From Candidatus Parcubacteria bacterium (lineage in GTDB: Bacteria; Patescibacteriota; Patescibacteriia; Patescibacteriales; UBA12075), in contig CAWFCE010000002.1 in NCBI GenBank assembly GCA_963814275.1, positions 1,195,263-1,259,262 of the forward strand: a stretch of DNA of 64,000 nucleotides. Direction: 5' to 3'. Below are positions 28,457 through 43,251 of the stretch, piece after piece. The notes beneath the pieces were generated by a model. It saw only the letters and a program-made list of their open reading frames with translations, had not been told where the DNA came from and searched no databases. Each line of letters starts with the position of its first letter. Position 1 is the first letter of the stretch. The position numbers and the translations under genes are program-made.

Positions 28457-28500
28457 ATTTGCCCTAACAACTCGCTATCGCTCGTTAATTTAATTACATC

Positions 28501-28627: not shown

Positions 28628-28686
28628 GAAATATGTTTTTACTCTTGGGCTAACGCCCCAACTTTTATATAATAAATTTAATTTTT

Positions 28687-29136
28687 ATGAATAACCTAAA
28701 ATATACGAAACCACTAAACATTTTTTTGCTTTTAGTAGCTATTGTCTTATTAGCTGGTTGCTCAAATAAATATTTTGAAAAAAATTTGGAGTGCGAGAAA
28801 CAAAAAGACATGCTTCAATACAACAGCGATAATTACAGCAAGGATACCAACACAATTATCAGTAAAATTCAAAAAGTATTTTACAGTCCAAAAGCAAAAA
28901 AATGTTTGTATGTTAGTGTCTCTGCAATCGATTTTAATTCGCCTAATAATATGACTGCTCTAACACAGAAAGACTATTCAGACGGAGCAAGATGGAAGCT
29001 CCGGACAATTTCAGGCGAATTAGTTGAAGATTTGCTAATTAACACTGAAGATGAAAAAATGGCTGTTTTTGGAGCAGAGCCACAACATACAGATTCATAT
29101 GAAGAATTTGAAAACCTTGTTAAAAAATGGGAATAA
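28687..29136 (+). CDS. putative lipoprotein (cassette 4)
   Basis: 149 aa. Signal peptide with lipobox LLAGC. Confidence 0.55.
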   Translation: MNNLKYTKPLNIFLLLVAIVLLAGCSNKYFEKNLECEKQKDMLQYNSDNYSKDTNTIISKIQKVFYSPKAKKCLYVSVSAIDFNSPNNMTALTQKDYSDGARWKLRTISGELVEDLLINTEDEKMAVFGAEPQHTDSYEEFENLVKKWE

Positions 29137-29200
29137 AAAATTAAATTTATTATATAAAAGCAATTCCGCATAAGCGGAATTAAGAGCAAAAACATACATC

Positions 29201-29657
29201 ACATAACAATGAATATGCGGTTCACAAATTAAAAATTATTCCTTATAATTATCAAAATATATGAAAAAAATATTAGTATTCGCGGTCGTTGTCTTGTTAA
29301 TAATTTTAGTGTTTAGCTGGTGGAATAAATCCCCAGAAGCTACATGGCAGGGTTCCTATTACAAACACGGACAACAAGAAAACGAAGTGTATGGACCAAT
29401 TTTTACTAATTTTGATGGCTGTAAAGCGTGGGCATTAGGAAAAATAGTTTATAACGACGACACAGCTAACTGTAGTAAAAATTGTCATGACGCTTTGGGA
29501 GACGGCACCCCTGTGTGTGAGGAAGTTGTTAGAAATTGGGCACCGCTTCCGGGCAGTTACACTTTTGATAATTATAAGGAATAATTTTTAATTTGTTCAC
29601 CCAAATTTTTGTTCCGCTTCGCTACACAAAAACTTCGCATATTCATAAACGTTAGGC
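29201..29657 (+). repeat. attC-like site 4, split by a nested cassette (29225-29595)
   Basis: R'' ACATAAC matches the upstream TTATGT. L'' AATGAATATGCG (29208-19) pairs with L' CGCATATTCAT (29636-46). The insert is flanked by GTTCAC (29220-25 and 29595-600) and sits immediately 5' of CCAAATT. R' is GTTAGGC (29651-57). Confidence 0.72.
29261..29584 (+). CDS. small secreted/TM-anchored Cys-containing protein (nested cassette)
   Basis: 107 aa with an N-terminal hydrophobic helix. The ORF is bracketed by a perfect 32-bp inverted repeat (29225-29256 / 29564-29595), whose right arm encodes the last 6 codons plus the stop. Confidence 0.55.
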   Translation: MKKILVFAVVVLLIILVFSWWNKSPEATWQGSYYKHGQQENEVYGPIFTNFDGCKAWALGKIVYNDDTANCSKNCHDALGDGTPVCEEVVRNWAPLPGSYTFDNYKE

Positions 29658-29689
29658 GAAATAAATTTTTCGCTACTAATTTTAAACAT

Positions 29690-30283
29690 ATGAAAAAATT
29701 CTTTTTGGGCTTCGCAAGCTCGTTATTAATCACAATTCCCCTGATCGCTTTTTCTGCTGATTCACTGTCTACAAAACTAAAAGGAAAAATTTTGTTAGCA
29801 GTAGAAGATAAGGGTAAAACTTATTATGTCAATGAAGATGGAAACAGATACAGAATTACTGTTTCTACTGCACAAAAAATATTTGAAAAACTTGCATTGG
29901 GCATTACAAATGAAAATTTAAGTCAAATTCCAGAAAGTAACGTAGGTATCGACCCAGAAGAAAACAGCACCCAGGAAAATTGTGCTGCGCAAGAATCAGA
30001 ATTAAATGATTGGAAGAATTTGAATACAAAAAATGAAAATACCCTCAGTTCTTGCCTTAACACCCTCACTAGCTTGAAGGATTCTTATGCAGACCTAATT
30101 AACAAATACGAAGATTGCATAGGTGAGTGCAATTATGGCCCTACAGTTGATGCACTCATCGCCCAAAATAACGAGCTTGCTAAACAAAATGATGAACTTT
30201 TAGCTATATCTATTTACTGGGAAAATAGTGCTAACACATGGAAGGCTTACGCATATGGTTGCACTGGCTATACTAGTCAATAA
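29690..30283 (+). CDS. secreted protein with KGKILLxVExxGxxYYV motif (cassette 6)
   Basis: ATG at 29690 (MKKFFLGFASSLLITIPLIAFS signal peptide). The track start at 29609 reads through attC-like site 4. Confidence 0.55.
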   Translation: MKKFFLGFASSLLITIPLIAFSADSLSTKLKGKILLAVEDKGKTYYVNEDGNRYRITVSTAQKIFEKLALGITNENLSQIPESNVGIDPEENSTQENCAAQESELNDWKNLNTKNENTLSSCLNTLTSLKDSYADLINKYEDCIGECNYGPTVDALIAQNNELAKQNDELLAISIYWENSANTWKAYAYGCTGYTSQ

Positions 30284-30336
30284 AATTAGTAGCGAAAAAT
30301 TTACTCAAGGGTTCGCTCCTTGAATCCGCTCACCTC

Positions 30337-31028
30337 GCCTAACGCGGCGTATCTGGCTCCGCTGGCCGTAAAATAATTAATTTTTTTATGACGATATTAA
30401 AGCCCAGAAATAAACCTGGCTCAAATAGTTTGCAAAACAGATTAGGTGGAGCAGTTTATAATTTTCTGGACAAAGCAAAAAATAATGATAAATTTTTGTT
30501 AGACTACGAAAGGATTAAAGGTAAATGTACCTCTGGCAATTGGCAAATTAATGATTATTCTCCAATACTTTTGCCATTGGTTAAATACTATGAAAATAGC
30601 TTGTGGTTTATTTGTGATAAATTAGGCATATTTAACCAGATTAATGACGGCAAAAAACCCCATAGCTTAAGGGCATTTTTCGACACAAAAGAAACAGAAA
30701 TAAATATTTGGCTTTCTTCAAAAATTAATGATAATCTTAAATATAAAAAATTGTCCAGAAAATTATTTTCAACAATCGACGATTATGTTCAGAGAAATGA
30801 AGTTGTTCATTGCAACGAAATCATATCCTTTCCCGATTTGAGCAATTACGATAGTTTGCTTACTAAATTAAAAGAATTAGTTGAACTTTTATTTAATCAC
30901 AATTTATTACAAAAAAATTAATTATTTTACTAGCTCCGCCCAAATTTCGTTTCCGCTTTTTGTTGGCGCATCCGCGCAATTATAACAAAAAGCTACAACG
31001 AAACTTCAGATACGCCGAAATGTTATCG
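30337..31028 (+). repeat. attC-like site 6, split by a nested cassette (30363-30932)
   Basis: R'' GCCTAAC is the reverse complement of the upstream GTTAGGC. L'' GGCGTATCTG (30346-55) pairs with L' CAGATACGCC (31007-16). The direct repeat GCTCCGC occurs at 30356-62 and 30933-39, the latter abutting CCAAATTT. R' is GTTATCG (31022-28). Confidence 0.72.
30388..30921 (+). CDS. hypothetical protein (nested cassette)
   Basis: 177-aa ORF flanked by the 20-bp inverted repeat GTAAAATAATTAATTTTTTT (30368-87 / 30911-30). Confidence 0.5.
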   Translation: MTILKPRNKPGSNSLQNRLGGAVYNFLDKAKNNDKFLLDYERIKGKCTSGNWQINDYSPILLPLVKYYENSLWFICDKLGIFNQINDGKKPHSLRAFFDTKETEINIWLSSKINDNLKYKKLSRKLFSTIDDYVQRNEVVHCNEIISFPDLSNYDSLLTKLKELVELLFNHNLLQKN

Positions 31029-31120
31029 GAAATAAATTTTTTATCTTGGTGGTAATTTCAAGGTTTGCGCGTTTTGCCAAGACGAAAATTTGATTTTTTA
31101 TTTTTTAAAGAGGGGTAATT

Positions 31121-31609
31121 ATGAAATTAACCAAAGAAACTACCTCGGAAAAACTTCTTGATTTTGGCAAACAGATTTTCGAGATTTTACAAAGACTAGA
31201 TACCTCACCAATCGTTTACGGTAGTTTGGCATATTTTTATCATACGAAAGATACTAGTTTCCCGATTAGAGACATTGATTTGCTTTTGCCAGAATCAAAT
31301 TTTTCAAAAATATCTGAAATGCTCGACAAAGAAAAAAATGTCACATACAATGTGATGCCATATCATAGTATAGAGGTATTCAGAGACGGTCTCGAAATCG
31401 ACATCGATTCTATCGAACATTTTTTAGATCCGAGATCTAGAGAATTTCATAAATCAACGATAAACGACCTCGATTTGAATATTTTAAATAAAGAGTCCTT
31501 GGCAAGCATTTACAAAGAAGCCTTGGATAACATGCCGCAAGAGAAAAAACTCGATGAAAAAAGAAATAAGTATCAAAAGAAGTTAGACAATCTCCAAAAA
31601 TTACTTTAA
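31121..31609 (+). CDS. hypothetical protein, possible minimal nucleotidyltransferase fold (cassette 8)
   Basis: 162 aa with SD AAGAGGGG. YGSLAYFYH...IRDIDLLLPE resembles the GS...DxD motif of Pol-beta-type nucleotidyltransferases; this is a weak call. Confidence 0.4.
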   Translation: MKLTKETTSEKLLDFGKQIFEILQRLDTSPIVYGSLAYFYHTKDTSFPIRDIDLLLPESNFSKISEMLDKEKNVTYNVMPYHSIEVFRDGLEIDIDSIEHFLDPRSREFHKSTINDLDLNILNKESLASIYKEALDNMPQEKKLDEKRNKYQKKLDNLQKLL

Positions 31610-31734
31610 TAAGGAGTTTTTATTTTTGGCCATTCACCCCTACCCCTCTGGCCAAAAATAAAAACAAAAAATCAAATTTTCTTTTAACGTAGAAAAGCTA
31701 TCGGCCAGTAGCATGGAGATAAAAAATTTACATC

Positions 31735-31921
31735 CGATAACACGGCACATGCGGTTCAGAAATTTCTCGTTTTTTAGACTTTTCAATTAAGGTATGAGAA
31801 ATTTCCTCTCCCAAATTGCGCTGACTATATGGAAAGTTTAGTGGTATAATCAAGTTAAGCGATAATCAATAATTTTATCAATAAATAACGGCGCAACTTC
31901 GCATGTGCCGATACGTTAAAT
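31735..31921 (+). repeat. attC-like site 8
   Basis: R'' CGATAAC is the reverse complement of the upstream GTTATCG. GGCACATGCGG / CGCATGTGCC stems; GGTTCA; H1 GAAATTTCTC...GAGAAATTTC; CTCTCCCAAATT; long H2; AACTTCG. R' is GTTAAAT (31915-21). Confidence 0.72.
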
Positions 31922-32016
31922 GAAATTGGCTAATTGTTTAGTGTACACCATAGATGACACTATAGTGTACACTAATGTGGTAAATCAAAGTTAATCGCGA
32001 GCCAACTTCACTTAAC
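31916..32016 (+). other. conserved ORF-less cassette, copy 1 of 3
   Basis: GAAATTGGCT...TTAATCGCGAGCCAACTTC-ACTTAAC with internal palindrome TAGTGTACAC-N16-GTGTACACTA. Homologous copies are at 59441-59542 and 61297-61396. Confidence 0.6.
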
Positions 32017-32534
32017 AGGTGATATGCGGTTACAATTAAGGAAATATAGAATATAATTTTTACTAAAAAAATCCCCACGAACTGAATCGCAGGGACACGT
32101 TGGTTTTAGTCCATCTTTGGAAATTACACAATAAGGATTTTTGCTCTGCCTTCGACATTGTGAAAACCGATAAACACAGTATTGCGTCCGGTTTCCTTTA
32201 AACGTTTCAATGCTAACACGGCAGCTTCGGTACCAACGGTTTTTTCAAAATCTGATATGAGCTTTATGGCATCATCAATCGGATAATCATCAACTTCCAC
32301 TCCAACCATTGGTCCGTGCTTTTCTGGGTCATATTCTGATATCGGCGCTGTCTTTAATTCCATATTCCCTCCTTTTTATGAATTGTTGCTAGAAACTTAG
32401 CACGTGAATGCCAAAAACGCAAGTAAAAATTATTTTCTATATTTCTTTAATCTCCACCCAAATTCCTGCCCCTCTTTTTAGGATAAATTAATAATGAGTC
32501 GGGGCAGAAACTTCGCATATCAAAAATGTTAGGC
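32010..32534 (+). repeat. attC-like site 9, split by a nested reverse-oriented cassette (32034-32451)
   Basis: R'' ACTTAAC. L'' GGTGATATGCG (32018-28) pairs with L' CGCATATCA (32513-21). ACCCAAATT and the H2 stem CCTGCCCC...GGGGCAG follow. R' is GTTAGGC (32528-34). This is a paralog of the array 2 site at 59536-60215. Confidence 0.7.
32124..32363 (-). CDS. hypothetical 79-aa protein (reverse-oriented nested cassette)
   Basis: Strong SD (AGGAGGG) 7 nt upstream of the ATG on the minus strand. The cassette is bounded by a roughly 29-bp inverted repeat (32034-63 / 32423-51). Confidence 0.55.
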   Translation of the reverse strand: MELKTAPISEYDPEKHGPMVGVEVDDYPIDDAIKLISDFEKTVGTEAAVLALKRLKETGRNTVFIGFHNVEGRAKILIV

Positions 32535-32559
32535 GAAATTTATTTTCAATTTAAAATTT

Positions 32560-33396
32560 ATGAGTTCGGATACTATAACCAATTACTACGATTACACCCT
32601 GCCATTTTATAGATTTTTTTATCACGGCAAGAGCAATGCCGTTCATTATGGCTTTTGGAACAATGGAGTTAAAAATCACCAGGAAGCTTTATTGAACGTA
32701 AATAAATTTTTGGCTGACACGGTTAAGATAAAATCAGATGATAGTGTTTTAGACGCGGGTTGCGGAATTGGAGGTAGCGCGATTTGGCTGGCACAGAATT
32801 ACAATGTTCGAGTTGATGGCATAACCATAAGTGAAAAACAGTTAGAGGAAGCCAAAAATTTATCTACCAAATATAATGTTGACCATATCGTAAATTTTTA
32901 TCAAAGAAATTTTTTAAATACCAAATTTAACGATAGTTCCTATAACATAGTTTTGGCGATTGAAAGCGTGTGCCATGCCGAGAACAAAAAGGACTTTATC
33001 AAAGAAGCGTACCGGGTACTTAAAAACGGCGGACGATTGATTGTTGATGATGGATTTCTTTTGCGAAGTCCGAAAAATAAACACGAGCAAAAAGATTTAA
33101 ATGCATTTTTAGAGGGCATGGCACTCTCCAATCTTGCTTTTGAAACAGACTTTAAAAAATCTCTTGAAGATGTTGGATTTAAAAATATAAAAATTTACGA
33201 CAAGGTCAACGAAACGATTCCTTCTTCAAAAAAAATCTATAAAATGTCAATTTTTAGTTATCCTTTATCTATAATTCTCGAAAAACTAAAACTTACACCA
33301 CCATTATTAACCAAAAATAATTTAGCGGGAATAACACAATACAGGATAATTAAAAATGGGATAATGGGACACCGAGTATTTTACGCTGAAAAATAA
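32560..33396 (+). CDS. class I SAM-dependent methyltransferase (cassette 11)
   Basis: 278 aa. Motif I VLDAGCGIGGSAIWLA; post-I and motif II/III spacing (LKNGGRLIVDD). Confidence 0.8.
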   Translation: MSSDTITNYYDYTLPFYRFFYHGKSNAVHYGFWNNGVKNHQEALLNVNKFLADTVKIKSDDSVLDAGCGIGGSAIWLAQNYNVRVDGITISEKQLEEAKNLSTKYNVDHIVNFYQRNFLNTKFNDSSYNIVLAIESVCHAENKKDFIKEAYRVLKNGGRLIVDDGFLLRSPKNKHEQKDLNAFLEGMALSNLAFETDFKKSLEDVGFKNIKIYDKVNETIPSSKKIYKMSIFSYPLSIILEKLKLTPPLLTKNNLAGITQYRIIKNGIMGHRVFYAEK

Positions 33397-33419
33397 ATTT
33401 TAAATTGAAAATAAACATC

Positions 33420-33573
33420 GCCTAACACCGCGATAAGCGGCTCCAGAAAAGTTCCTTAATTAAATATAATAATGAGTAAACTTTTCTTCCGACCCAAATT
33501 TCTATTTTTCTTTTCTTATTAATTTTAATATTGAAAAAAAATAGAAACTTCGCTTCATCGGGAAACGTTGTGT
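33420..33573 (+). repeat. attC-like site 11
   Basis: R'' GCCTAAC is the reverse complement of the upstream GTTAGGC. CCGCGATAAGCGG / CGCTTCATCGGG stems; GGCTCC; H1 33445-87; CCCAAATT 33493-500; H2 33501-45; AACTTCG 33546-52. R' is GTTGTGT (33567-73). Confidence 0.75.
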
Positions 33574-33639
33574 GAAATAATGTCCTTAAACAAAATATTT
33601 TAGGTGGTGCTAATTCAAAAGAAAAAGGAGGGAGGTATT

Positions 33640-33852
33640 ATGGTAATCATCAATAAACTTGGCAGATTATTAAAAGACCATTCAGAAACTTTTATTCTTT
33701 TTTTAGCGGGTATAATATTAACCCTATACGGGATTTTGAAAGCATTGCCTTTTATTGATTGGGCGCAGAAAGGTCAATTTTCGAGTGAGTTTACTATTTT
33801 ACTTGGAATACTTCTGCTATTCTTTGGACTTCGTTCATTATTAAACAAATAA
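33640..33852 (+). CDS. small two-TM membrane protein (cassette 12)
   Basis: ATG at 33640 preceded by AAGGAGGGAGG. 70 aa. Confidence 0.55.
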   Translation: MVIINKLGRLLKDHSETFILFLAGIILTLYGILKALPFIDWAQKGQFSSEFTILLGILLLFFGLRSLLNK

Positions 33853-33955
33853 ATTGATTATTCTCGCGGGGAACACTTTCCCCGCACCACCTAAAATATT
33901 TTGTTAGCTTCTATTCAGAAGCTGTTTGCTCAATCGCAAACAAGGACATTACATC

Positions 33956-34073
33956 ACACAACAACGCGACAAGCGATTCGGTCTTTATTCAAAGACCTCA
34001 CTCAAATTTTTGAAATGATTATTAACTTTAATAATGAATTTCAAAAACTTCGCTTCGTCGGTATACGTTATAT
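33956..34073 (+). repeat. attC-like site 12
   Basis: R'' ACACAAC is the reverse complement of the upstream GTTGTGT. H1 GGTCTTTATTCAAAGACC; CACTCAAATT; H2 TTTGAAATG...ATTTCAAA; ACTTCG. R' is GTTATAT (34067-73). Confidence 0.72.
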
Positions 34074-34090
34074 GAAATTAAAAATTCCCT

Positions 34091-34603
34091 ATGAGCATTA
34101 AACAAGATTGGAAAAGTCCCAAAGTTGATATAAAAGATAGTCCGATTGGAGGAAAAGGCATTTTTGCTAATTCCAATATTAAACGAGGTGAAAAAATCAT
34201 CGTCTGGGGAGGAAATTATACTGATGCTGTTGGTGCGCAAAAAGCAAAAGAAAAAGGTATGCTAGTATTTCAATGGGACGATGACCTTTATAGCTACGAA
34301 GATAGAGGGAAAGACGATGGGTACTACATAAACCATTCCTGTAACCCTAATCTATGGATGACAGATGCATACACTTTAACAGCTATGAGAGATATTAATG
34401 CTGGTGAAGAAATTACAATAGATTATGCGTTGTTCGAGGAAGATGATTATATTTCAAAATGGAAATGCAACTGCGGTTCATCGTTATGCCGCGGCCGGGT
34501 TACAGGAGAGGATTGGAAAAGCATAGTGCTACAAAAACGCTATAAAGGACATTTTTCACCTCTCTTAAATAAACGGATCCAGAAATTACAAGATAATAAA
34601 TAA
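34091..34603 (+). CDS. SET domain protein (cassette 13)
   Basis: 170 aa. YINHSCNPN and EEITIDY SET motifs plus the post-SET CNCGSSLCRG. Confidence 0.8.
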   Translation: MSIKQDWKSPKVDIKDSPIGGKGIFANSNIKRGEKIIVWGGNYTDAVGAQKAKEKGMLVFQWDDDLYSYEDRGKDDGYYINHSCNPNLWMTDAYTLTAMRDINAGEEITIDYALFEEDDYISKWKCNCGSSLCRGRVTGEDWKSIVLQKRYKGHFSPLLNKRIQKLQDNK

Positions 34604-34627
34604 TTCACGGCGGGAATTTTTAACATC

Positions 34628-34772
34628 ATATAACACCGCGATAAGCGGTTCCAGAAAATTTCCTTTATTAATGATAATAATGAATAAAATTTTCTTCCAC
34701 CCAAATTTTGCAAATGAATATTAATTTTAATAAGGTATTTGCAAAACTTCGCTTCATCGGGAAACGTTAGGC
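34628..34772 (+). repeat. attC-like site 13
   Basis: R'' ATATAAC is the reverse complement of the upstream GTTATAT. Same family as sites 3, 11 and 17. R' is GTTAGGC (34766-72). Confidence 0.75.
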
Positions 34773-34800
34773 GAAATAATTTATCAATAATTAAATTTCT

Positions 34801-35150
34801 ATGGGAATAGACAACAAGCCTTTTACGGCAGAGCAACTCCAGGAACAGATTAATTTTTTTGGAATTGATTGCACTGTAAAAAAACACCTGGAGAAAAATA
34901 TATATTTTTTAGTTGTGACTCTATGGAAGACGCGGAATCAATAGTAGTAAGTTTTTGGGGAAAAAGAGATCAATCAGTTGTTGACGGCCTTAACCGAGGC
35001 ATGCTAAAACCTAGTCATGAAATTACTACAGGTGCCAGAACGGAAATCACTGAAATCGGAGGCAAAGCAACATTAATTATTAGTGAAAACGGTGCTCCAC
35101 TTTCGGAAAAAACAATTTCAGCATTAGAAGATGGAGGATTTACAATTTAA
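34801..35150 (+). pseudogene. hypothetical cassette gene with a frame break at an A7 run (cassette 14)
   Basis: The ATG at 34801 opens MGIDNKPFTAEQLQEQINFFGIDCTVKK. After the A7 run (about 34877-34883) the reading continues in another frame as TPGEKYIFFSCDSMEDAES... to 35150; one extra A would fuse the two frames. Alternatively an intact ORF could start at ATG 34923. Confidence 0.4.
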
Positions 35151-35232
35151 TTATTGATAAATTACTCAAGGGGGCGCTGCGCTTCAGGTCTGCCTTTTAC
35201 AATTAATAATATTGAGAGCAGACCTGACCCTC

Positions 35233-35331
35233 GCCTAACAACGCGATATGCGGTTCGGCCCTCGGCTCGGGCCTCACCCAAATTTTCTTTCACTTCGTTC
35301 AAGAAAACTTCGTATATCGGTGATGTTGTAC
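35233..35331 (+). repeat. attC-like site 14
   Basis: R'' GCCTAAC is the reverse complement of the upstream GTTAGGC. Near-identical to site 2 apart from H2. R' is GTTGTAC (35325-31). Preceded by a hairpin module at 35165-35232. Confidence 0.75.
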
Positions 35332-35359
35332 GAAATAAAAATTTAATTATTTTGCTACC

Positions 35360-36079
35360 ATGAAATTCAAGGAAGCATACAAACACATAAACCCCACCGA
35401 ATACATAAATATTTTTTCCAACCCTCAATGGTATTTGGAAATACAAGCTGAACTAAAGGATTTTTTTTATGATTATGACGGCAATAAGGATAACAAATCG
35501 CAAGAATGGCTTGAAAAAAGGAAAGAATTTGTAAAAATGGTTTGTGAACTTTTAGAAGCTGGCAAAGTTGCTCTTGGCGACTCTGGTATAAACTGGGATA
35601 AAGACCGTTTACCCATAGATACAATTGTTATACATCATACGAGCACGCCATCAGACACCCCCGTTATAGCCATTGATGCACTGGGATTGATTCGTTTGTA
35701 TGCACCGAATTACAGCAAAAAAAATGAGGAGCAATTTGGCCAGCCAATATGGTCAAACCATTTTTGCAAAAATCAACAAACATTCGTTGCTTATCATTAC
35801 ATAATCAGACAGGATGGTTCTTTTGAACACATATTACAAGATGACCAAATAGGTTGGCATTGTGGCAATTGGGATTATAACTGCAGAAGTATTGCGATTT
35901 GTTTTCTTGGTGATTTAAAAGAAAAAAAACCGACTGAAAAAGCACTTCAAACGGCGAATGAAATCATAAAAAAATATCCAAATTGTAATATATTCGGTCA
36001 TAGAGAAATTAAACCCACAACAACTTGCCCAGGTAATCTGTTTCTAGGGAAAGAGGGTTGGAAAACGACATATTTCTAA
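35360..36079 (+). CDS. N-acetylmuramoyl-L-alanine amidase (amidase_2/PGRP fold) (cassette 15)
   Basis: 239 aa. IVIHHTSTP...AYHYIIRQDG...GWHCGNWDYNCRSIAICFLG...GHREI...TCPG. Confidence 0.75.
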   Translation: MKFKEAYKHINPTEYINIFSNPQWYLEIQAELKDFFYDYDGNKDNKSQEWLEKRKEFVKMVCELLEAGKVALGDSGINWDKDRLPIDTIVIHHTSTPSDTPVIAIDALGLIRLYAPNYSKKNEEQFGQPIWSNHFCKNQQTFVAYHYIIRQDGSFEHILQDDQIGWHCGNWDYNCRSIAICFLGDLKEKKPTEKALQTANEIIKKYPNCNIFGHREIKPTTTCPGNLFLGKEGWKTTYF

Positions 36080-36107
36080 GAACGCAAAATAATTAAATTT
36101 TTACATC

Positions 36108-36186
36108 GTACAACACTGAATATCTGGTTCCGTTATCGCTCCACCCAAATTGCTGACGCAACTTCAGATATTCAGAAACGTTATCG
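36108..36186 (+). repeat. attC-like site 15 (shortest, 79 bp)
   Basis: R'' GTACAAC is the reverse complement of the upstream GTTGTAC. CTGAATATCTGG / CAGATATTCAG stems; GGTTCC; CCACCCAAATT; hairpin GCTGACGCAA; CTTCAG. R' is GTTATCG (36180-86). Confidence 0.75.
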
Positions 36187-36253
36187 GAAATATTGCTCAT
36201 TAAAATATTTTTTTGTAAGAGGGCTTGAAATTAACTATCAAAGGAGGATTGTA

Positions 36254-36544
36254 ATGAAGAAAAAATCTTTACACAACGTTGGAGATTTGGTCGTATTTAA
36301 TGAAACCAAAGAATTTGGGAACAAAAATGACCGTATATTTCACATCCACGCCATTCGATATGGCAAATGCACTGGAATTCCTAAAAAACAATATTGGTTC
36401 GCTGGTTTCCTGCTGGAAATTGGAAAACACGAGAGTGAGGGTTTACCTCAAATTCCAGTTTTTGCAACAACCTTAACCAACGCTTCCGAAAATCAATTGA
36501 GTTCATTAGAGCATCTACAATGCCGTTTCAACCCATGGAAATAA
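36254..36544 (+). CDS. hypothetical protein (cassette 16)
   Basis: 96 aa. SD AAAGGAGGA upstream of the ATG. Confidence 0.5.
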   Translation: MKKKSLHNVGDLVVFNETKEFGNKNDRIFHIHAIRYGKCTGIPKKQYWFAGFLLEIGKHESEGLPQIPVFATTLTNASENQLSSLEHLQCRFNPWK

Positions 36545-36651
36545 TCTACGCCCTTTGTCTTCGCGGGAATAAACAATATTCCCGCCCTCTTTTCAAAAAA
36601 ATATTTTTGCTGGCTTATCAGCCAACGGCTATCACTAATGAGCAATATATC

Positions 36652-36759
36652 CGATAACAGCACGCTATCCGGTTCGCGCTTGCCCTGTCGGGCAAATGCT
36701 CACCCAAATCCCGACTCCGATTCACTACATCGGGACTTCGGATATCGGCATATGTTATG
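36652..36759 (+). repeat. attC-like site 16
   Basis: R'' CGATAAC is the reverse complement of the upstream GTTATCG. Family shared with sites 18, 23 and 24 (GCACG.TATCCGG ... CCGATATC). H1 stem TTGCCC/GGGCAA. R' is GTTATGT (36753-59). Confidence 0.75.
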
Positions 36760-36815
36760 TGAAATTTAAGTTGTGGCCTTAATTAAATTTAATATATTCA
36801 ATAACTTCTCTCTTA

Positions 36816-37208
36816 ATGATAAAACAAGTTTCATTGTTAATATTATTTGATAAAGATAAGCGCATTTTATTGCAACATCGTTCCGAAGATCAAGAAGGAT
36901 TACCTGGCTATTGGGCTTTTTTTGGTGGTCATATTGAAAACGGCGAAACACCAGAGCAGGCATTACTGAGAGAGTCTGAGGAGGAATTAGAGTATATGCC
37001 GGAAAACCCCCGCCTAGTTATGACTCAGGATTTTATGCACGACAATATACGACATAGAAAATACGTTTATTTAGAGGAATATAATAACAGCAAACTTGTT
37101 CAACACGAGGGTCAAGCTATGGGATGGTACCATTTAGGCGAAATACAAAAATTAAAAATGGTAGACCACGACCGAGAAGTTATTGATTATATTAAAAACA
37201 AATATTGA
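36816..37208 (+). CDS. NUDIX hydrolase (cassette 17; duplicated at 60271-60663)
   Basis: 130 aa. Nudix box [23 protein letters not shown]. Protein sequence identical to the array 2 copy. Confidence 0.85.
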
Positions 37209-37227
37209 GTGCCACAACTTAAACATC

Positions 37228-37433
37228 ACATAACACCGCGATAAGCGGCTCCAGAAAATTTTCTTTATTAATATTAAACAGGAATAAAATTTTCTACCGG
37301 CCCAAATTTCATTTCAGTTTTCTGATGAACGTTCAATAAACGTTCATCGCTCCACGATTGTCTGATATTGATAATAATCGATTCTAAAACGGAAAACTGA
37401 AGTGAAACTTCGCTTCATCGGGAAATGTTAAAT
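37228..37433 (+). repeat. attC-like site 17 (206 bp)
   Basis: R'' ACATAAC is the reverse complement of the upstream GTTATGT. Long branched H2. R' is GTTAAAT (37427-33). Duplicated with the NUDIX cassette in array 2. Confidence 0.72.
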
Positions 37434-37497
37434 GAAATATCTAAAACAAATTCCCTATCGGGAATTTTATCTGCAAGTTTATAATTAATTTTCTTAT

Positions 37498-38160
37498 ATG
37501 AAAAACAAATTTTTTTTACTATTAATCTTAGTCATTATCTTAGCTGGGTGCAATAAACAAAACACAAGTATTAATTTAACCCCAGATAATCAAACTAAAA
37601 ATATTTCAAACTCAACAAACGATACTAATACATCAATACAGGAAAACGTAGAAGCAAAAAACAATATTCCCGAAGAAAAACCAACAGAAATTAAGCAAGA
37701 AGACGATATAAAAATACAAAATATTAATAATAAAAAAAGTTATCAAAATTTAACAACTGGGTTTAGCTTAGAATTTCCAGAGGCATTAATATTCAGGAAT
37801 AACGCTTTTTACACCGAGGTAAACTGGGACGGTATTGTAAATAAAAAAACTGACCATATGTACGTTCCTGAATTTACTGTCCGTTTTGCATCTGATGTGT
37901 CATTAGATGAATTTATTTATAATTCGATTAACCCAAATTATAAAAATCATTTTAATTCAAACAAAAACAAAATCAAAGAACAAAAAACAATAGGAAATAA
38001 TAAATTCTTTATGATAAACAGTAAAAATTTTGATAGCAATGGTTGTAGTTACTATATAGAAAATAATAAAAATATAATGAGATTAAGTACCGCATATAAC
38101 TGCGGTGAAAACGAATTAATAGAAAACGTTTTGATATCTATTAAAACAACAGAAAATTAA
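37498..38160 (+). CDS. putative lipoprotein (cassette 18)
   Basis: 220 aa. Signal peptide with lipobox ILAGC; Asn/Lys-rich. Confidence 0.55.
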   Translation: MKNKFFLLLILVIILAGCNKQNTSINLTPDNQTKNISNSTNDTNTSIQENVEAKNNIPEEKPTEIKQEDDIKIQNINNKKSYQNLTTGFSLEFPEALIFRNNAFYTEVNWDGIVNKKTDHMYVPEFTVRFASDVSLDEFIYNSINPNYKNHFNSNKNKIKEQKTIGNNKFFMINSKNFDSNGCSYYIENNKNIMRLSTAYNCGENELIENVLISIKTTEN

Positions 38161-38212
38161 TTATAAACTTGCAGATTATTTTTGCTATCGCAAAAATGGT
38201 TTTAGATACAGC

Positions 38213-38318
38213 ACATAACAGCACGATATCCGGTTCGCGCTTTCCTTCGGAAAATGCTCACGCAAATCCCGACTCCGTTTCACTGCGTCGGGACTTCGGA
38301 TATCGGCATACGTTAGGC
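38213..38318 (+). repeat. attC-like site 18
   Basis: R'' ACATAAC has 2 mismatches to the upstream GTTAAAT. Paralog of site 16 with a compensatory H1 stem TTTCC/GGAAA. R' is GTTAGGC (38312-18). Confidence 0.68.
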
Positions 38319-38347
38319 GAAATTTAAAATTTATCTTTATCTCAATT

Positions 38348-38638
38348 ATGTCATTAAACAAACTAAAACATTTTAAAAAACCTTGGGTAATTGGTCTTAT
38401 TGTTGGTATAATCCTAGCCATCGGAAATATATTACTTGCCGGAATTCCAGGGATTATCTTATTTGAAAACACTTTAGATCCGGTACAATCAATTTCTGGT
38501 TGTGCAGGAGAAGACTGTTGGGGTCCATCTGCACTTTATGGTAGTGTAATTTTCTTAATTGTCGGGTTTTTATTTGGTTACCTTGTTGGAATATTTATAA
38601 ATAGATCCTTGAGCAAAGTAGATAAAGATAAATTTTAA
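38348..38638 (+). CDS. small membrane protein (cassette 19)
   Basis: 96 aa, 3 TM helices. The 3' end (GATAAAGATAAATTTTAA) is part of the cassette inverted repeat. Confidence 0.5.
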   Translation: MSLNKLKHFKKPWVIGLIVGIILAIGNILLAGIPGIILFENTLDPVQSISGCAGEDCWGPSALYGSVIFLIVGFLFGYLVGIFINRSLSKVDKDKF

Positions 38639-38712
38639 ACTCAAGGGGGCGCTGCGCTTTCGTCCCGCCCTTTGAATAATATAATTTAATATTGTAGGCG
38701 TGACGAACCCTC

Positions 38713-38811
38713 GCCTAACACCGAGTATACGGAAAAAGGCTCAACTCGCCTTTTTCCCAAATTCGCCTTCGTTTCACTCCGGCGAACTTCGTATACTCGG
38801 AAACGTTATCG
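38713..38811 (+). repeat. attC-like site 19
   Basis: R'' GCCTAAC is the reverse complement of the upstream GTTAGGC. CCGAGTATACGG / CGTATACTCGG stems; H1 AAAAAGGC...GCCTTTTT; CCCAAATT. R' is GTTATCG (38805-11). Preceded by a hairpin module at 38640-38712. Confidence 0.75.
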
Positions 38812-38845
38812 GAAATTACACTTTTTAAAAAATAATTTTATTATT

Positions 38846-39511
38846 ATGAACCATAAACTAAAACCCTTAATCTATAGTTTGATATTTGCTACACCAATAT
38901 ATTTATATGCCACATACGTGTTTAGCTATATTCCAGATTATGATAGTAGCTTTCCTTTTGACAAAGAAGCGTTTTTCTTTGTCCCAGTCTTAACCTATGG
39001 CATCTCAATATTGCTATTCCACATAATTTATATGAAAGCTACAATAAATATTGTTAAAGGTTTTAACGAATACAAAAGAAACAACAAAAAAAAGTATTTA
39101 TATCAAAATTTATTCACCTTTTTGATAGTTTTATCATTCGCCCACCTGTCTTTGGTGGCGCCAAGATACATGCAATCAATAATATTCGTACTTTATTTAA
39201 TAATTTATATTTTAATTATAAAAATCCCCAATCAATACCTTCGCGCTGAATTCAATAACTATAAAAAATATTTTAGAGATGCTAATATATTCAACTTTGT
39301 ATTATCATTCGTGGTTCTTATAAATACTTTTTTATTTATTAGATTCGCAGGAAATATTACCGGAAACGAGGTAGGTGACTTTTTGGCCCTAGTTTATACG
39401 AGTGGATTTTTGTTGTTTCTTTTGTTTGCTTCATTTGTCGTAAATGTATTTATATTACTAATTCATAAAAATTATTTAACAAAAAAACATAACCAACCAC
39501 AAGGTTCATAA
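38846..39511 (+). CDS. polytopic membrane protein (cassette 20)
   Basis: 221 aa with about 6 TM helices. Confidence 0.5.
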   Translation: MNHKLKPLIYSLIFATPIYLYATYVFSYIPDYDSSFPFDKEAFFFVPVLTYGISILLFHIIYMKATINIVKGFNEYKRNNKKKYLYQNLFTFLIVLSFAHLSLVAPRYMQSIIFVLYLIIYILIIKIPNQYLRAEFNNYKKYFRDANIFNFVLSFVVLINTFLFIRFAGNITGNEVGDFLALVYTSGFLLFLLFASFVVNVFILLIHKNYLTKKHNQPQGS

Positions 39512-39589
39512 TAATAAAATTATTTCTTTATTTGGGCTATTCGCCCAAATGTCCTTCCCTATCGGTCAGGACTAAAAAGTGTAACTGTC

Positions 39590-39726
39590 CGATAACAGCG
39601 TATATCAGGTTCCGACTCCCCTGTCGGTGAGCCTCCACCCAAATTCGGTCTCCATAATTTGCTGGTGCTCCGCACAATTTTAGAAAATTACTACGACTGT
39701 ACTTCTAATATACGCATATGTTAGAT
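39590..39726 (+). repeat. attC-like site 20
   Basis: R'' CGATAAC is the reverse complement of the upstream GTTATCG. GGTTCC; CCACCCAAATT. R' is GTTAGAT (39720-26). Confidence 0.7.
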
Positions 39727-39763
39727 GAAATGACTCCATATTCATTACGTCACATCATCTAAC
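39721..39763 (+). other. minimal ORF-less cassette (43 bp)
   Basis: TTAGAT-GAAATGAC...GTCACATC-ATCTAAC: just a short inverted repeat between an R' and the next R''. Confidence 0.5.
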
Positions 39764-40325
39764 ACTGTGTAACTGGCTCCGCTAAATAAATAATTTCATT
39801 TCAATATTATGGCTTACTATAACAAAATCGGCTTATTGATTTTAAATGAAAATGCTACTAAATTTCTTGTTTGTGAGCCTGGCAACCTGTATAAAAATAA
39901 AAACGTTACTCAGTATTTAATGCCCGGCGGGAAATACGAAGAAGATTCTGTCGAGGATTGTTTAAAATCCGAAACAAAAGAAGAGCTTGGTTGTGAATTG
40001 GACATAAGCAGTGTTAAATATATTAATGAATACCTCGACGTAGCCGCGGCAAGCCCCAATCGCGATGTCTCAATTCGTTTATATGAAGGAAAACTCATTG
40101 GCAAACCCGTTCCCTCAACTGAAATAGGCGCTCTTCATTGGATTGGAAAAAGAGACGTTAATAATGAAAAAGTTTCTGCCATAATAAAAAATAAAATAAT
40201 CCCCGATTTAGTGGAGAAAAAAATATTGAAATAAAATTATTTATTTAGCTCCGCCCAAATTTTTGAAATAATTAATTAACTTGATAAGGAATTTCAAAAA
40301 CTTCAGTTACACATAAACGTTAGAT
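39757..40325 (+). repeat. attC-like site 21, split by a nested cassette (39783-40247)
   Basis: R'' ATCTAAC. L'' TGTGTAACTG (39766-75) pairs with L' CAGTTACACA (40305-14). The direct repeat GCTCCGC occurs at 39776-82 and 40248-54, the latter abutting CCAAATTT. R' is GTTAGAT (40319-25). Confidence 0.72.
39809..40234 (+). CDS. NUDIX-like hydrolase (nested cassette)
   Basis: 141 aa. Nudix-box-like PGGKYEEDSVEDCLKSETKEELG. Flanked by the perfect 15-bp inverted repeat CTAAATAAATAATTT (39782-96 / 40234-48). Confidence 0.6.
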   Translation: MAYYNKIGLLILNENATKFLVCEPGNLYKNKNVTQYLMPGGKYEEDSVEDCLKSETKEELGCELDISSVKYINEYLDVAAASPNRDVSIRLYEGKLIGKPVPSTEIGALHWIGKRDVNNEKVSAIIKNKIIPDLVEKKILK

Positions 40326-40398
40326 GAAATAAATAAATGCTTTTCGGCTAACGCCGAAAAATTATTCGGGCAAATATTTATTATTCAATACTAAAAGA

Positions 40399-40944
40399 AT
40401 GAACAAAAAAATAATATTGACGTTAAGCATTTTAGCCCTTATGGCTATCGGGCTCTATTTCTGGATTGTTAACAAATATCAACCTAAACCTGAAACAAAT
40501 ATCCCACTGGTTAATCAACCGGTTGTGGAAGATGCACAGATGGACGAAACTAAAAAAATTGACAATTGGCAGACTTATACAAACAAAGATTATGGTTTCG
40601 AATTCCAATACCCAAGTGATTTAAAGAAAAAAGATAATCATTATTATTTTTTTGATCTAGTAAATAAGCAAGTTACAATACATATAGATATTCTTGATGA
40701 AAAATTTGATATTAATAATGTAAAAAGCCCTATTGGATACGTCCCAAAAGACACAATCAGTGAAACCACAATTAATGGAATTAAAGCCTACTTCTTTAGT
40801 GATGGTGACATGGGTGCAGGGGGAAATAGCTATAGAATGCCAATCGACGAAAATCATACTTTACTTATTTGGTTTGTTACAGAAGGCGGCCCATACCAGA
40901 ACGAAAATAAAATTCTTTCAAGTATAAAAATATTGAATAAATAA
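40399..40944 (+). CDS. TM-anchored extracytoplasmic protein (cassette 23)
   Basis: 181 aa with an N-terminal TM helix. Confidence 0.5.
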   Translation: MNKKIILTLSILALMAIGLYFWIVNKYQPKPETNIPLVNQPVVEDAQMDETKKIDNWQTYTNKDYGFEFQYPSDLKKKDNHYYFFDLVNKQVTIHIDILDEKFDINNVKSPIGYVPKDTISETTINGIKAYFFSDGDMGAGGNSYRMPIDENHTLLIWFVTEGGPYQNENKILSSIKILNK

Positions 40945-40991
40945 AATTTGCCCAAATAATACTCGCTATCGCTCGCGAATTTATTTACATC

Positions 40992-41095
40992 AGCTAACAG
41001 CACGATATCCGGTTTGCGCTTACCTCCGGCAAACGCTCACCCAAATCCCGATATCGCTTCGCTCATCGGGACTTCGGATATCGGCAATGTTATCG
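40992..41095 (+). repeat. attC-like site 23
   Basis: R'' AGCTAAC has 1 mismatch to the upstream GTTAGAT. Family of sites 16, 18 and 24. R' is GTTATCG (41089-95). Confidence 0.7.
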
Positions 41096-41149
41096 GAAAT
41101 AGGAAAAAAAATATTTTCTTCCAGAAAATACAAATTATTTTTGAAAATT

Positions 41150-41187
41150 AAAAAGCCTCGTGGTTACTTAAGTATTATCCACGAGGC
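41150..41187 (-). terminator. rho-independent terminator of the reverse-oriented cassette gene
   Basis: GCCTCGTGG...CCACGAGGC hairpin followed by a T-run on the minus strand. Confidence 0.55.
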
Positions 41188-41205
41188 CAATTAAACGGTT
41201 TTATT

Positions 41206-41460
41206 TTATCTATCTGTAAAATATGGGCATCTACCACAATAAGTAGATACTTCCTCCTTAGATCTTGGAGGTCCTGGATTACAGTACGACAAGTAACACG
41301 AACCTTCTTTGCCCAATTGCCAGTGTTTGCACAACACTTTTGTGCGACCGTCAAGGTAAACATTAACAATTGCTTGACAGGGCTTGTCAAAGACATTCTT
41401 TCTTGACCTGTCTGCCCCCATACAAGGAACTATATGTGATTGTAATAAAACACTTTCCAT
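41206..41460 (-). CDS. small Cys-rich protein (reverse-oriented cassette 24)
   Basis: 84 aa. Strong SD (AAGGAGGAATC-ATG on the minus strand); 8 Cys including CGRC. Confidence 0.55.
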   Translation of the reverse strand: MESVLLQSHIVPCMGADRSRKNVFDKPCQAIVNVYLDGRTKVLCKHWQLGKEGSCYLSYCNPGPPRSKEEVSTYCGRCPYFTDR

Positions 41461-41609
41461 GATTCCTCCTTGTTCAGTTATAATATTTCCAAAAATAATT
41501 TAAAAATAGTGCGGGATTTTATAGCGTTTAAAACTAACATCACAGATATTATATTTTACACTTTTTAGGAAGAAAGTCAAGACACTATTTCCTGTTTTTT
41601 ACTACTATC

Positions 41610-41697
41610 CGATAACAGCCGATATCCGGTTTGCGCTTACCTCTGGCAAATGCTTACCCTTCGCTACTCGGGACTTCGGTTATCACAAACGTTAGGC
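41610..41697 (+). repeat. attC-like site 24 (CCCAAAT core partly deleted)
   Basis: R'' CGATAAC is the reverse complement of the upstream GTTATCG. Aligns with site 23 but lacks about 6 nt of the central motif. R' is GTTAGGC (41691-97). Confidence 0.65.
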
Positions 41698-41786
41698 GAC
41701 ATTTGCGAGCGTGTTAATTTGTCTACAGGATCCTAACAAAAAATAATTATAAATAAAGATTATTTTTAAACAAAATTTGTATAAAT

Positions 41787-41921
41787 ATGAAAAAAAACAT
41801 AAAACAGGCAATTAAAATTCACCAACAAGGTTTTCTTCCGATAGTAGAAAAATATATTAGGAATAAAAATCTTTTAGATGTTGGCTGCGGGAATGGATTA
41901 AATTCATTTTTCTTAATATAA
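41787..41921 (+). pseudogene. truncated SAM-methyltransferase fragment (cassette 25)
   Basis: A 44-codon ORF ending just after motif I (LLDVGCGNG). It runs directly into a 5'-truncated attC-like site lacking R''. Confidence 0.5.
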
Positions 41922-41924
41922 AAC

Positions 41925-42047
41925 TTTCTCTTACGCATTCGCTTCAGAGAAATTATAATATTGAAATTCTTTCACCCAAATTTTGCAGATGAATATAAAT
42001 ATTAATAAGGTATCTGCAAAACTTCGCAACATGCGGATATGTTCAGC
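41925..42047 (+). repeat. attC-like site 25, 5'-truncated
   Basis: TTCACCCAAATT, H2 TTGCAGATG...TCTGCAA and ACTTCG are present, and R' is GTTCAGC (42041-47). No recognisable R''. Confidence 0.5.
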
Positions 42048-42094
42048 AAAATCGTGCGCCTTCGCTAACGCTCGGCGCTTCGATCTTGCTGAAC
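42042..42094 (+). other. minimal ORF-less cassette (53 bp)
   Basis: TTCAGCAAAATCG...CGATCTT-GCTGAAC. R'' GCTGAAC (42088-94) is the reverse complement of the upstream GTTCAGC. Confidence 0.5.
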
Positions 42095-42165
42095 GGTCGC
42101 GGTGCCCGAATCAGTTAAATAAAATAGCCTCGGCCATTATTCTTGTATCAAAGTATTGACAACGT

Positions 42166-42196
42166 AAAAAAGCCGCTACTTAATTTCACGGCTTTT
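42166..42196 (-). terminator. possible bidirectional terminator downstream of the reverse gene
   Basis: AAAAGCCG...CGGCTTTT hairpin with an A-run and a T-run on either side. Confidence 0.45.
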
Positions 42197-42271
42197 GAAT
42201 GGACTATCTCACTTTACACGGAACATCTGGTCCGTAAAAAGGAATTTAATAAATTGAACCCTTTTTACAGT

Positions 42272-42754
42272 TTACCTGGCTATGCGTTTGTAAATGAAAA
42301 AAGGCATTAACATGATGATTAGCTCCCTGCTCCACCATTCCCATTTTGTACGAGTGCGTTTTTGCCCTGATTCGACGCAAAACCACTCATTAGAATATAG
42401 TCTCACTTCTTCACATGCGTTAACCTTAATTTGTGCGCCAGCTTCTCGGACAGCATAAGTCAGATCCCTAACACAGCGCCACATGTGAGGTTTTGCGGCT
42501 ACAATCAAAAGATTTGTAATTCCTCTACGCATTGCCCACTGAACAGCCCCCCTTGCTATTCGCAAAGTAGGCGGCGGATAACCTGGTTGTTCTTTCGTAA
42601 ATTCAACTTCAATTTTCGGCTCAACCATAACGTCAACCTGAGTATATACTGGTGCGCATAATTCCCTGGCTTTCCGCGAAGCGATTTCAGAAATTAACCT
42701 ATTTGAGAGTAAAGAACTTGGTACCCCAAATGCTTGTGCCACTATTCCTTCCAT
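42272..42754 (-). CDS. hypothetical 160-aa protein (reverse-oriented, last unit of array 1)
   Basis: SD AAAGGAGGTTCAAT-ATG on the minus strand. GC content is higher than in neighbouring cassettes. Confidence 0.55.
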   Translation of the reverse strand: MEGIVAQAFGVPSSLLSNRLISEIASRKARELCAPVYTQVDVMVEPKIEVEFTKEQPGYPPPTLRIARGAVQWAMRRGITNLLIVAAKPHMWRCVRDLTYAVREAGAQIKVNACEEVRLYSNEWFCVESGQKRTRTKWEWWSRELIIMLMPFFIYKRIAR

Positions 42755-43251
42755 ATTGAACCTCCTTTGTTTGTATAGCCAGATTTTACTTTATAACATA
42801 TTTTATAATATTTGTCTATAGTAAAAACAAAAAAATATTAAAAGGGCTCTAAAATAAGGTATGTTATTTGTTAAATTTCTTTTCACTACACCCAAATTTC
42901 ATTTATCCTTTTATCAATAATTATAATAAGCTATAATAAATAAAACTTCCGATACTCCGATATGTTCAGAGAAATAATAAAAAATCTTTTTTGTCGTATG
43001 CATGTTTAAAAAAATTAAAAGGAAGTGATTTTATTTAAATATCCTTGGAAAGAACAAAGGGATGAACCCAAAAGAATTTATGCGGTATCTGGATGGAATG
43101 AAGCCTAAAATTATTATAACGAGCAGTTTCAACTTTATTCACCTCATTCCGCTCCCTGCTGCGCATGGCCTGCGGGCCACGGTTCACCACGCAACAAACG
43201 GCTTACCAAATTCTTTATCTTTATTCTTAACCATATATAGTAAAATATAAT

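Follow-up and report, generated by a model that had tools for sequence, protein, structure and literature searches.

How does one and the same gene come to lie in two separate gene arrays of a single bacterial chromosome? The question is raised by a 64,000-nt stretch (the window) of contig CAWFCE010000002.1, assigned to a Candidatus Parcubacteria bacterium (positions 1,195,263 to 1,259,262). It holds two arrays of short, co-oriented plus-strand open reading frames (ORFs), split by a repeated site and headed by a tyrosine recombinase gene that runs in the opposite direction, and a unit with a NUDIX gene is present in both. From the sequence we conclude that this unit is very probably a mobile cassette, placed in both arrays by recombination at the R' boxes of an integron-like system. 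This reading is carried by the cassette boundaries, the pairing rules, the recurrence in other contexts and the selection on the protein. The original prediction, duplication or movement of a single cassette by R'-box recombination, is supported by four independent tests: the boundaries of the copies, a rule that links the first bases of each cassette to its own R'' box, orthologous cassettes in two other loci (L059 and L074), and another cassette shared with a syntenic relative (L056). Among named organisms, the closest relatives of the NUDIX protein and of both recombinases come from Patescibacteria (Kuenen-, Falkow-, Parcu-, Wolfe-, Kerfeld- and Gracilibacteria), and the host replicon is a chromosome of Patescibacteria (Candidate Phyla Radiation, CPR), from a bacterium with a tiny genome.

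Extent, boundaries and selection of the NUDIX cassette

Local alignment, repeat analysis (repeat family D1) and BLAST agree on a 673-nt unit that is present twice (36755-37427 and 60210-60882) at a constant offset of 23455. Throughout, cassettes are delimited at the G↓TT of the GTTRRRY box, which is taken as the crossover point (arrow). On this basis pairwise alignment gives 12 differences and no gaps (98.22% identity), in agreement with the near identity first noticed; the two ranges given then, of 673 and 672 nt, were one base out of register. In copy 1 numbering, the differences lie in the leader (36785 and 36810), the ORF (36872, 36908 and 37010) and the recombination site (37229, 37238, 37360, 37411, 37422, 37423 and 37426). 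The site measures 206 nt in both copies from R'' to the end of R', as had been predicted.

On the left, identity begins at ...AT G↓TTATGTG in both arrays, at the GTTATGT where the homology had been said to start, and the upstream flanks share the consensus of the site family only. On the right, identity is unbroken to 37421 and is followed by mismatches at 37422, 37423 and 37426, then by an invariant GTTA, and then by AAT in copy 1 versus GGC in copy 2. The claim that homology ends a few nucleotides before the downstream R' is thus literally correct for the unbroken identity, but not if it is taken to mean a displaced crossover. With the crossover at G↓TT the three mismatches still fall within the cassette, and we take them for additional substitutions of the L'-R' spacer, because in the highly similar cassette shared with L056 both breakpoints are at GTT. 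The downstream boxes, GTTAAAT and GTTAGGC, differ as originally described because each neighbouring cassette begins with bases of its own, TTAAAT and TTAGGC, respectively. Those neighbours are indeed unrelated apart from common site motifs, and a comparison of both arrays in the window revealed no further whole cassette common to the two. Copy 2 and both its junctions were reproduced independently in a 3.6-kb metagenome contig from the European Nucleotide Archive (ENA; L001), which is 100% identical to 58902-62494. This contig begins 4 nt past the crossover of the attI-like site of array 2; the assembly graph may have broken there because the junction is repeated or variable, and the arrays may thus differ within the population.

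The first bases of the cassettes follow a rule that holds beyond the NUDIX pair. The five variable bases that follow G↓TT complement the R'' of the same cassette perfectly in 18/26 cassettes, against 1/26 for an array neighbour and 0/20000 shuffles, and this is what crossover at G↓TT combined with shuffling of whole cassettes predicts. Both NUDIX copies start with G↓TTATGTG, the complement of their own R'' (CACATAAC). The RRRY bases downstream complement the R'' of the next cassette: TTAGGCG at 60883 matches the CGCCTAAC of its own cassette perfectly.

Comparisons with other loci place the boundary at the same point. A contig from Logan (L059) carries a NUDIX orthologue with 83% protein identity and the same leader from G↓TTATGTG onwards, between a different upstream site and a different downstream cassette. 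In a contig from the Joint Genome Institute (JGI; L074) an orthologue sharing 87/130 residues and the same leader heads the array, directly at an attI-like site that is 78 nt away from an Int1-type gene. As a control we used a different cassette (Table 1), which is shared with the syntenic relative L056 at 96.7% identity, versus 71-85% for the core genes of the two genomes. On the left its match begins at G↓TT, and on the right it is lost with the first variable base that follows GTT. Breakpoints clearly outside the R' boxes, which the original prediction had named as grounds for giving it up, were looked for; the breakpoints map to GTT.

The 130-aa cassette protein contains a NUDIX domain (PF00293, 73.1 bits versus a cutoff of 21.1) and also matches PF14815. 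Its Nudix box (GX5EX7REUXEEXGU), as read from the translation, is G38-x5-E44-x7-R52-E53-S-x-E56-E57, with S at the U position and E for the final G. The protein thus resembles MutT-type NUDIX hydrolases in domain and box, and differs from them in these two box residues and in its score against the MutT (8-oxo-dGTP diphosphatase) equivalog model TIGR00586, which at 62 bits is below the cutoff of 97.9. In PADLOC, the candidate defence family PDC-S07 is a further match (E = 6.6e-22). A scan of genome contigs with the protein returned only NUDIX genes of at most 48% identity, mostly cyanobacterial. NUDIX genes are also present in the arrays of L057 and L074, and a third NUDIX-like ORF of 173 aa lies between the two arrays of the window (45576-46097; weakly similar to the cassette protein, tblastn E = 1e-4).

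The NUDIX protein is under purifying selection. The ORF differences are exactly the TTG/TTA, GGC/GGT and CCC/CCT changes of the original prediction, all three synonymous and in third positions, and the two proteins are identical. With dS 0.043 and dN 0, three synonymous changes out of three have P = 0.006 under neutrality; no non-synonymous change was observed versus 4-13 expected from silent or non-coding rates. Across the family, dN/dS is 0.06-0.09 (against L059 and L060), in support of the early suggestion that both copies are constrained. Being under purifying selection and recurring in at least four array contexts, the NUDIX cassette may provide its hosts with a useful function.

Upstream of the gene, the leader contains GAAATTTAAGTTGTGGCC at 36761 and 60216. 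Its conservation in L059 is about 93%, at a divergence that has saturated synonymous sites. Part of it, TTTAAGTTGTGGC (36765-36777), is complementary to GCCACAACTTAAA (37211-37223), just past the stop codon. A consensus scan of the NUDIX region found no plus-strand sigma-70-like promoter in the leader.

Architecture and pairing of the recombination sites

The window contains 28 sites that terminate in GTT (or ATT) RRRY, and R'' 7-mers were identified for 26 of them. The general order is ACATC-RYYYAAC (R''), an L'' arm ending in GG(T/C)TC, a variable hairpin and a conserved CCCAAATT junction, followed by a second hairpin, AACTTC with the L' arm, a spacer of 7-9 nt, and G↓TTRRRY-GAAAT. In copy 1 of the NUDIX cassette this becomes R'' (ACATAAC), the L'' arm, hairpin 1, the CCCAAATT junction at 37301, an extended hairpin 2, the AACTTC-L' arm, the spacer and R'. 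The sites thus have the features of attC sites, namely RYYYAAC and GTTRRRY ends and paired L boxes that are kept in structure and not in sequence; their length and three-way architecture are atypical. The 5' ends of the cassettes read TTRRRY, as expected for crossover at G↓TT, within the resolution of the invariant GTT on which this sequence-based mapping relies. Two sites have ATT in place of GTT as the crossover triplet, at 28621 in the window and at about position 652 of L059 (the sequences of the pair being A↓TTATGT and A↓TTAGGC).

The L'' and L' arms vary between sites and are complementary within them, with a score of 8.7 for cognate versus 5.0 for non-cognate arms (0/5000 shuffles), and therefore the structure of the site is under selection, as in attC sites. 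The covariation persists with arms up to about 690 nt apart, which favours a folded strand as the substrate. The asymmetric unpaired bases (a spacer of 1 versus 3-4 nt and a TT bulge) are, together with the covariation, compatible with a folded single (bottom) strand that has extrahelical bases, and with replicative resolution.

Cassette-specific inverted repeats of 13-18 bp bracket the ORFs (58908-58925/59259-59276, 36765-36777/37211-37223 and 25866-25915/27110-27160). They lie just inside the R' and R'' boxes, so that the stem of a circular cassette would extend well past the 7-bp R box. The circularised NUDIX site is predicted to fold into one long stem with a three-way junction at -54 kcal/mol, versus -35 kcal/mol in the array context.

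The junction motif (CA)CCCAAATT occurs 23 times (e.g. at 27211, 37301 and 60756), in almost every site, and is nearly confined to the arrays. The recombinase or an accessory factor may bind there. No known RNA (Rfam, gathering threshold) and no tRNA was found in the whole window.

In several units the R''-L'' arm lies toward the 5' end, 36-95 nt past G↓TT, or behind a first ORF, and an ORF is inside the site (39721-40319, 59441-60209, 31916-32528, 61297-61769, 29201-29657 and 30337-31028). Such ORFs, e.g. a 177-aa NUDIX gene at 59588-60121 and the ORF at 39809-40234, are enclosed between L'' and the part comprising CCCAAATT, hairpin 2 and L'. These sites span 386-692 nt and their arms still pair. 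To our knowledge, cargo in this 'wrong' loop of an attC-like site has not been described for integrons.

A conserved leader of about 95-120 nt is common to three cassettes (31910-32028, 59435-59554 and 61291-61408); it contains palindromes that resemble operators, TAGTGTACACCATAG ... CTATAGTGTACACTA, and leads into the R''-L'' arm. In two of the three the 3' site matches as well (32424-32542 versus 60105-223, 79%), and their interiors differ. We considered 31916-32528 as a degraded copy of the 177-aa NUDIX cassette; leader and site are common to both, but there is no tblastn match, and this reading is therefore rejected.

Recombinases, attI-like sites and genomic setting

Features of the window that are discussed here are listed in Table 1.

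Table 1. Coordinates of the cassettes, sites, arrays and recombinases in the window (nt, position 1 being the first base of the window)
Feature	Position	Strand	Remarks
NUDIX cassette copy 1	36755..37427	+	14th in array 1; runs from the TT of the preceding R' through the G of the cassette's own R'
NUDIX cassette copy 2	60210..60882	+	3rd cassette of array 2
Cassette leader, 61 nt	36755..36815	+	TTATGTG (distal half of R', pairs with own R'') followed by TTTAAGTTGTGGC
NUDIX ORF copy 1, 130 aa	36816..37208	+	MutT-like, below the MutT equivalog cutoff
NUDIX ORF copy 2, 130 aa	60271..60663	+	protein identical to copy 1
attC-like site, copy 1, 206 nt	37228..37433	+	R'' ACATAAC to R' GTTAAAT; last 6 nt belong to the next cassette
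attC-like site, copy 2, 206 nt	60683..60888	+	R/L stem predicted to be weaker
Control cassette	34767..35325	+	96.7% identical to the L056 cassette; both breakpoints mapped to GTT
Array 1	25859..42964	+	22 units ending in ACTTC..GTTRRRY(GAAAT)
Array 2	58898..62349	+	at least 6 cassettes; continues toward the end of the window
attI-like site, array 1	25838..25869	+	AACAAGTTCAGATATAACCA G↓TTAGATGAAAT; G at 25858, 78 nt from the Int1 start
attI-like site, array 2	58884..58908	+	CGCATAATAACCA G↓TTGTACGAAAT; G at 58897
Int1 tyrosine recombinase, 286 aa	24920..25780	-	transcribed away from array 1; colinear with XerA
Int2 tyrosine recombinase, 270 aa	57970..58782	-	transcribed away from array 2; 40% identical to Int1

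As in integrons, each array has a recombinase gene and an attI-like site at its start. The G↓TT, part of a shared core ATAACCA G↓TT, lies upstream of the recombinase gene, at 78 nt for Int1 and at 115 nt for Int2. The 78-nt spacing also occurs in L056, L063, L064 and L074 (five loci with the window), and a spacing of 118 nt in L073. Arrays of sites of the same family were found at a fixed distance from recombinase genes in L056, L057, L063, L064, L073 and L074; a site-pattern search detected no array in the Falkowbacteria locus L058. In L073, an IS110-family transposase gene is present inside the array (L073:2107-3078).

Both recombinases keep the R..HxxR..H..Y motifs and are by sequence catalytically intact. 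Int1 is colinear with Pyrococcus XerA (4a8e) over residues 15-279 and, like Int2, belongs to the XerC/D/A type without insertions. Against the Vibrio cholerae integron integrase VchIntIA (2a3v), Int1 aligns in two blocks (20-182/9-171 and 214-274/245-305), with 31 residues where IntI4 has 73, about 42 aa shorter. VchIntIA is the best solved-structure match of Int2, with the same gap, and the alignment of Int2 to XerA is continuous. With the integron integrase model TIGR02249 the match is split in two and stays under the cutoff (209 and 197 versus 265 bits), and the archaeal XerA model NF040815 (XerA_Arch) gives 249 bits for Int1, above its cutoff of 220, and 203 bits for Int2, below it. A metagenome scan with Int1 yielded only 10 loci, and so small a number gives no basis for a survey.

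The arrays are compositional islands, with 33-35% GC versus 45-50% in the flanks. The flanking housekeeping genes encode a MurA-type enolpyruvyl transferase, an MraY-type glycosyltransferase, a ClpB-like ATPase, a CTP synthase and a PilT-type ATPase. GC skew is negative across the window without a change of sign, which rules out a location of the arrays at the terminus or dif. The core genes are on the minus strand; together with the negative skew, it therefore appears that the cassette ORFs (25859-42964 and 58898-64000) are transcribed against the likely direction of replication. Elsewhere in the window, two minus-strand ORFs (53684-54085, 133 aa, and 54219-54626, 135 aa) are tandem paralogues that share a 134-nt stretch with 78% identity (repeat D10), and an AT-rich, TTGGATTATTGAAAATT-like repeat occurs in intergenic regions of a glycosyltransferase cluster (18441-18489, 22225-22273 and 23183-23231).

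Routes to two copies and relation to known systems

The mobile cassette of this Patescibacteria chromosome would consist of the 61-nt leader, the NUDIX gene and the 206-nt recombination site. In the mechanism that we propose, the site ends would pair, R''/L'' with L'/R', and the circular form would lengthen this stem by about 13 bp into the leader. The array-adjacent tyrosine recombinases, as the presumed acting enzymes, would cut at the G↓TT of GTTRRRY on a presumably folded single strand, and the unit would leave as a circle with the expected junction ...CATCGG(G/T)(A/G)AA(T/C)G↓TTATGTGAAATTTAAG. The circular cassette could then re-enter at an attI-like or attC-like site. The cassette would have been placed in both arrays in this way, either by an array-to-array copy or by two captures from the community pool, with 1.8% divergence thereafter. 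A replicative 'copy' of integron cassettes is an established outcome that explains duplicated cassettes (PMC3458562).

Several observations weigh against this reading. Six of the 12 differences between the copies fall within the 63 nt of the R and L arms (Fisher P = 3e-4; P = 0.01 when compared only with non-coding and synonymous sites), and three are within 5 nt of the crossover, which a clean single crossover does not predict. The arm differences at 37238, 37422 and 37423 are not compensatory; the copy 2 stem is simply weaker, the predicted energies of the isolated R/L stems being -14.6 kcal/mol for copy 1, -6.9 kcal/mol for copy 2 and about -11 kcal/mol for hybrids. The coexistence of both copies in one cell rests on the sequence of one assembly. 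In addition, the structure alignments and TIGR02249 show that the IntI-specific additional domain, the I2 helix region near patch III, is absent from Int1 and Int2. This domain is considered necessary for recombination of folded attC sites, and archaeal IntIs keep it (PMC9668308); likewise, in current opinion folded attC sites can recombine only by virtue of the I2 helix that IntI acquired (PMC7790495, PMC9668308). Int1 and Int2 look like a housekeeping Xer pair, and could be one, because both families are conserved across Patescibacteria (55-65% identity).

For the cluster near R' we see three alternatives: short-patch conversion from another site, a heteroduplex in the central region as in Xer-type recombination, or a fast-evolving unpaired spacer. 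The spacer of copy 1, GGGAAAT, resembles the commonest spacer in the arrays, and that of copy 2, GGTGAAC, recurs in an L073 site of the same hairpin-2 subfamily with different cassette content. The hairpin-2 insertion of about 58 nt that brings the site to 206 nt is present in both copies and absent from L059, and in L059 and L074 the NUDIX gene is linked to other site subfamilies. By contrast, a short cassette in L073 (5429-5812, minus strand) without a called ORF has a site that shares about 80% identity with the NUDIX site over its extended hairpin 2 and 3' arm. ORFs and sites therefore seem to be exchanged as separate modules.

Of the explanations other than a copy made within the genome, the one to be taken most seriously, at somewhat less than an even chance, is that distinct community alleles were captured independently and inserted separately by the same site-specific mechanism. 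The divergence of the copies is not recent (dS 0.043, 12 differences), related NUDIX cassettes circulate in other genomes, the copy 2 spacer is found again in the same-subfamily site of L073, and the L056 case shows that cassettes pass between genomes. On the other hand, the nearest external relative found has 83% protein identity and a dS of about 1, versus 100% protein identity between the copies, and both copies share the hairpin-2 insertion that L059 lacks. A chimera of strains or another assembly artefact, in which the cassette of array 1 in one strain and of array 2 in another were merged, seems improbable to us. It would fit a 1.27-Mb contig derived from a metagenome, the repeat-rich arrays, and the recovery of the array 2 region in another assembly as a separate 3.6-kb contig that starts 4 nt past the attI crossover; however, 12 differences and unique flanks on both sides are not those of a collapsed or duplicated repeat, L001 reproduces copy 2 and its two junctions at 100%, and, chimera or not, one cassette would still be present in two array contexts.

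Homologous recombination or gene conversion between the arrays through similar site flanks, without a site-specific enzyme, is more improbable still. Sites of the same family share up to about 85% identity over some 90 nt, and the differences clustered before R' could mark the end of a conversion tract. Yet the sites upstream of the two copies come from different subfamilies and have only short consensus blocks in common, and identity starts at most 2 nt from G↓TT. The comparisons with L056 and with L059 and L074 give the same exact boundary, and the array-wide match of first bases to the own R'' is not expected from homologous exchange.

Placement of the NUDIX cassette by R'-box recombination thus remains the preferred reading, and it has consequences for the view of integron evolution. 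The duplication provides base-level evidence for cutting at G↓TT where the recombinases do not pass the test that defines integron integrases. Tentatively, and with clear reservations, we suggest that the window represents a widespread integron analogue of Patescibacteria that is run by Xer-type recombinases without the I2/IntI domain, perhaps the bacterium's own XerC/XerD-like pair, on dif-like, folded three-way sites that hold cargo in either loop. If this is true, the system would either be a present-day relative of the ancestor that integrons had before IntI, or have invented the cassette array independently, and the NUDIX copies and the cassette shared with L056 would be natural records of the crossover point. 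If Xer-like enzymes without I2 run structure-conserved arrays in CPR bacteria, an origin of integrons from Xer-type systems would become directly testable, and surveys that require the IntI domain would miss a whole clade of cassette platforms in a major radiation of reduced genomes.

Among known systems, Xer/dif is alike in its enzymes, Int1 and Int2 being colinear with XerA and XerD. The consensus of the cassette 5' ends after the G of the crossover, TTATGTGAAAT, matches 10/11 bases of the XerD arm of Escherichia coli dif, TTATGTTAAAT, which we treat as a lead only (dif sequences from PMC3025954); the right arms of the individual sites match dif at 6-10 of 11 bases (28 sites). The left block at L', ACTTCGCATAT, resembles the left arm of Bacillus subtilis dif, ACTTCCTAGAA. 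Unlike a single 28-bp dif (11-6-11) at the terminus, there are dozens of direct-repeat sites here, with a variable spacer of 7-9 nt and not 6, and with arms that are not palindromes of each other; the arrays begin at a fixed site beside recombinase genes and not at a skew switch. Elements that exploit Xer/dif recombination include the pdif modules of Acinetobacter, and CTX phage reportedly integrates through a dif-like duplex made by folding one strand (a folded single-stranded attP).

Archaeal integrons (Ghaly et al. 2022, PMC9668308) are likewise arrays in uncultivated lineages with small genomes that were found through metagenomes; their IntIs are reported to have the additional domain, which Int1 and Int2 do not have. 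A literature search of the searchable library returned no relevant description of integrons in Patescibacteria/CPR or of integrases without the additional domain.

The closest likeness is to the sedentary chromosomal integrons, such as the superintegron of V. cholerae. These also have a long co-oriented array, a recombinase gene that points away from it, an attI-like site beside that gene, RYYYAAC ... GTTRRRY ends, paired L arms of variable sequence and preserved complementarity, cassette limits at G↓TT with first bases that match the own inverse core, and arrays unlike the host in composition. Duplicated cassettes occur in them too and are explained by replicative resolution (PMC3458562). The system described here differs in its recombinases without the IntI-specific domain and in its Patescibacteria host. 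Its sites differ as well: they are 79-206 nt long, with a three-way junction (CCCAAATT) and flanking ACATC/GAAAT motifs, several of them hold an ORF in the loop (386-692 nt), and the stems run 13-18 bp past the R box into leader and trailer. We conclude that the duplication of the NUDIX cassette is in itself ordinary integron-type behaviour, in a platform that looks like an undescribed variant of the integron.

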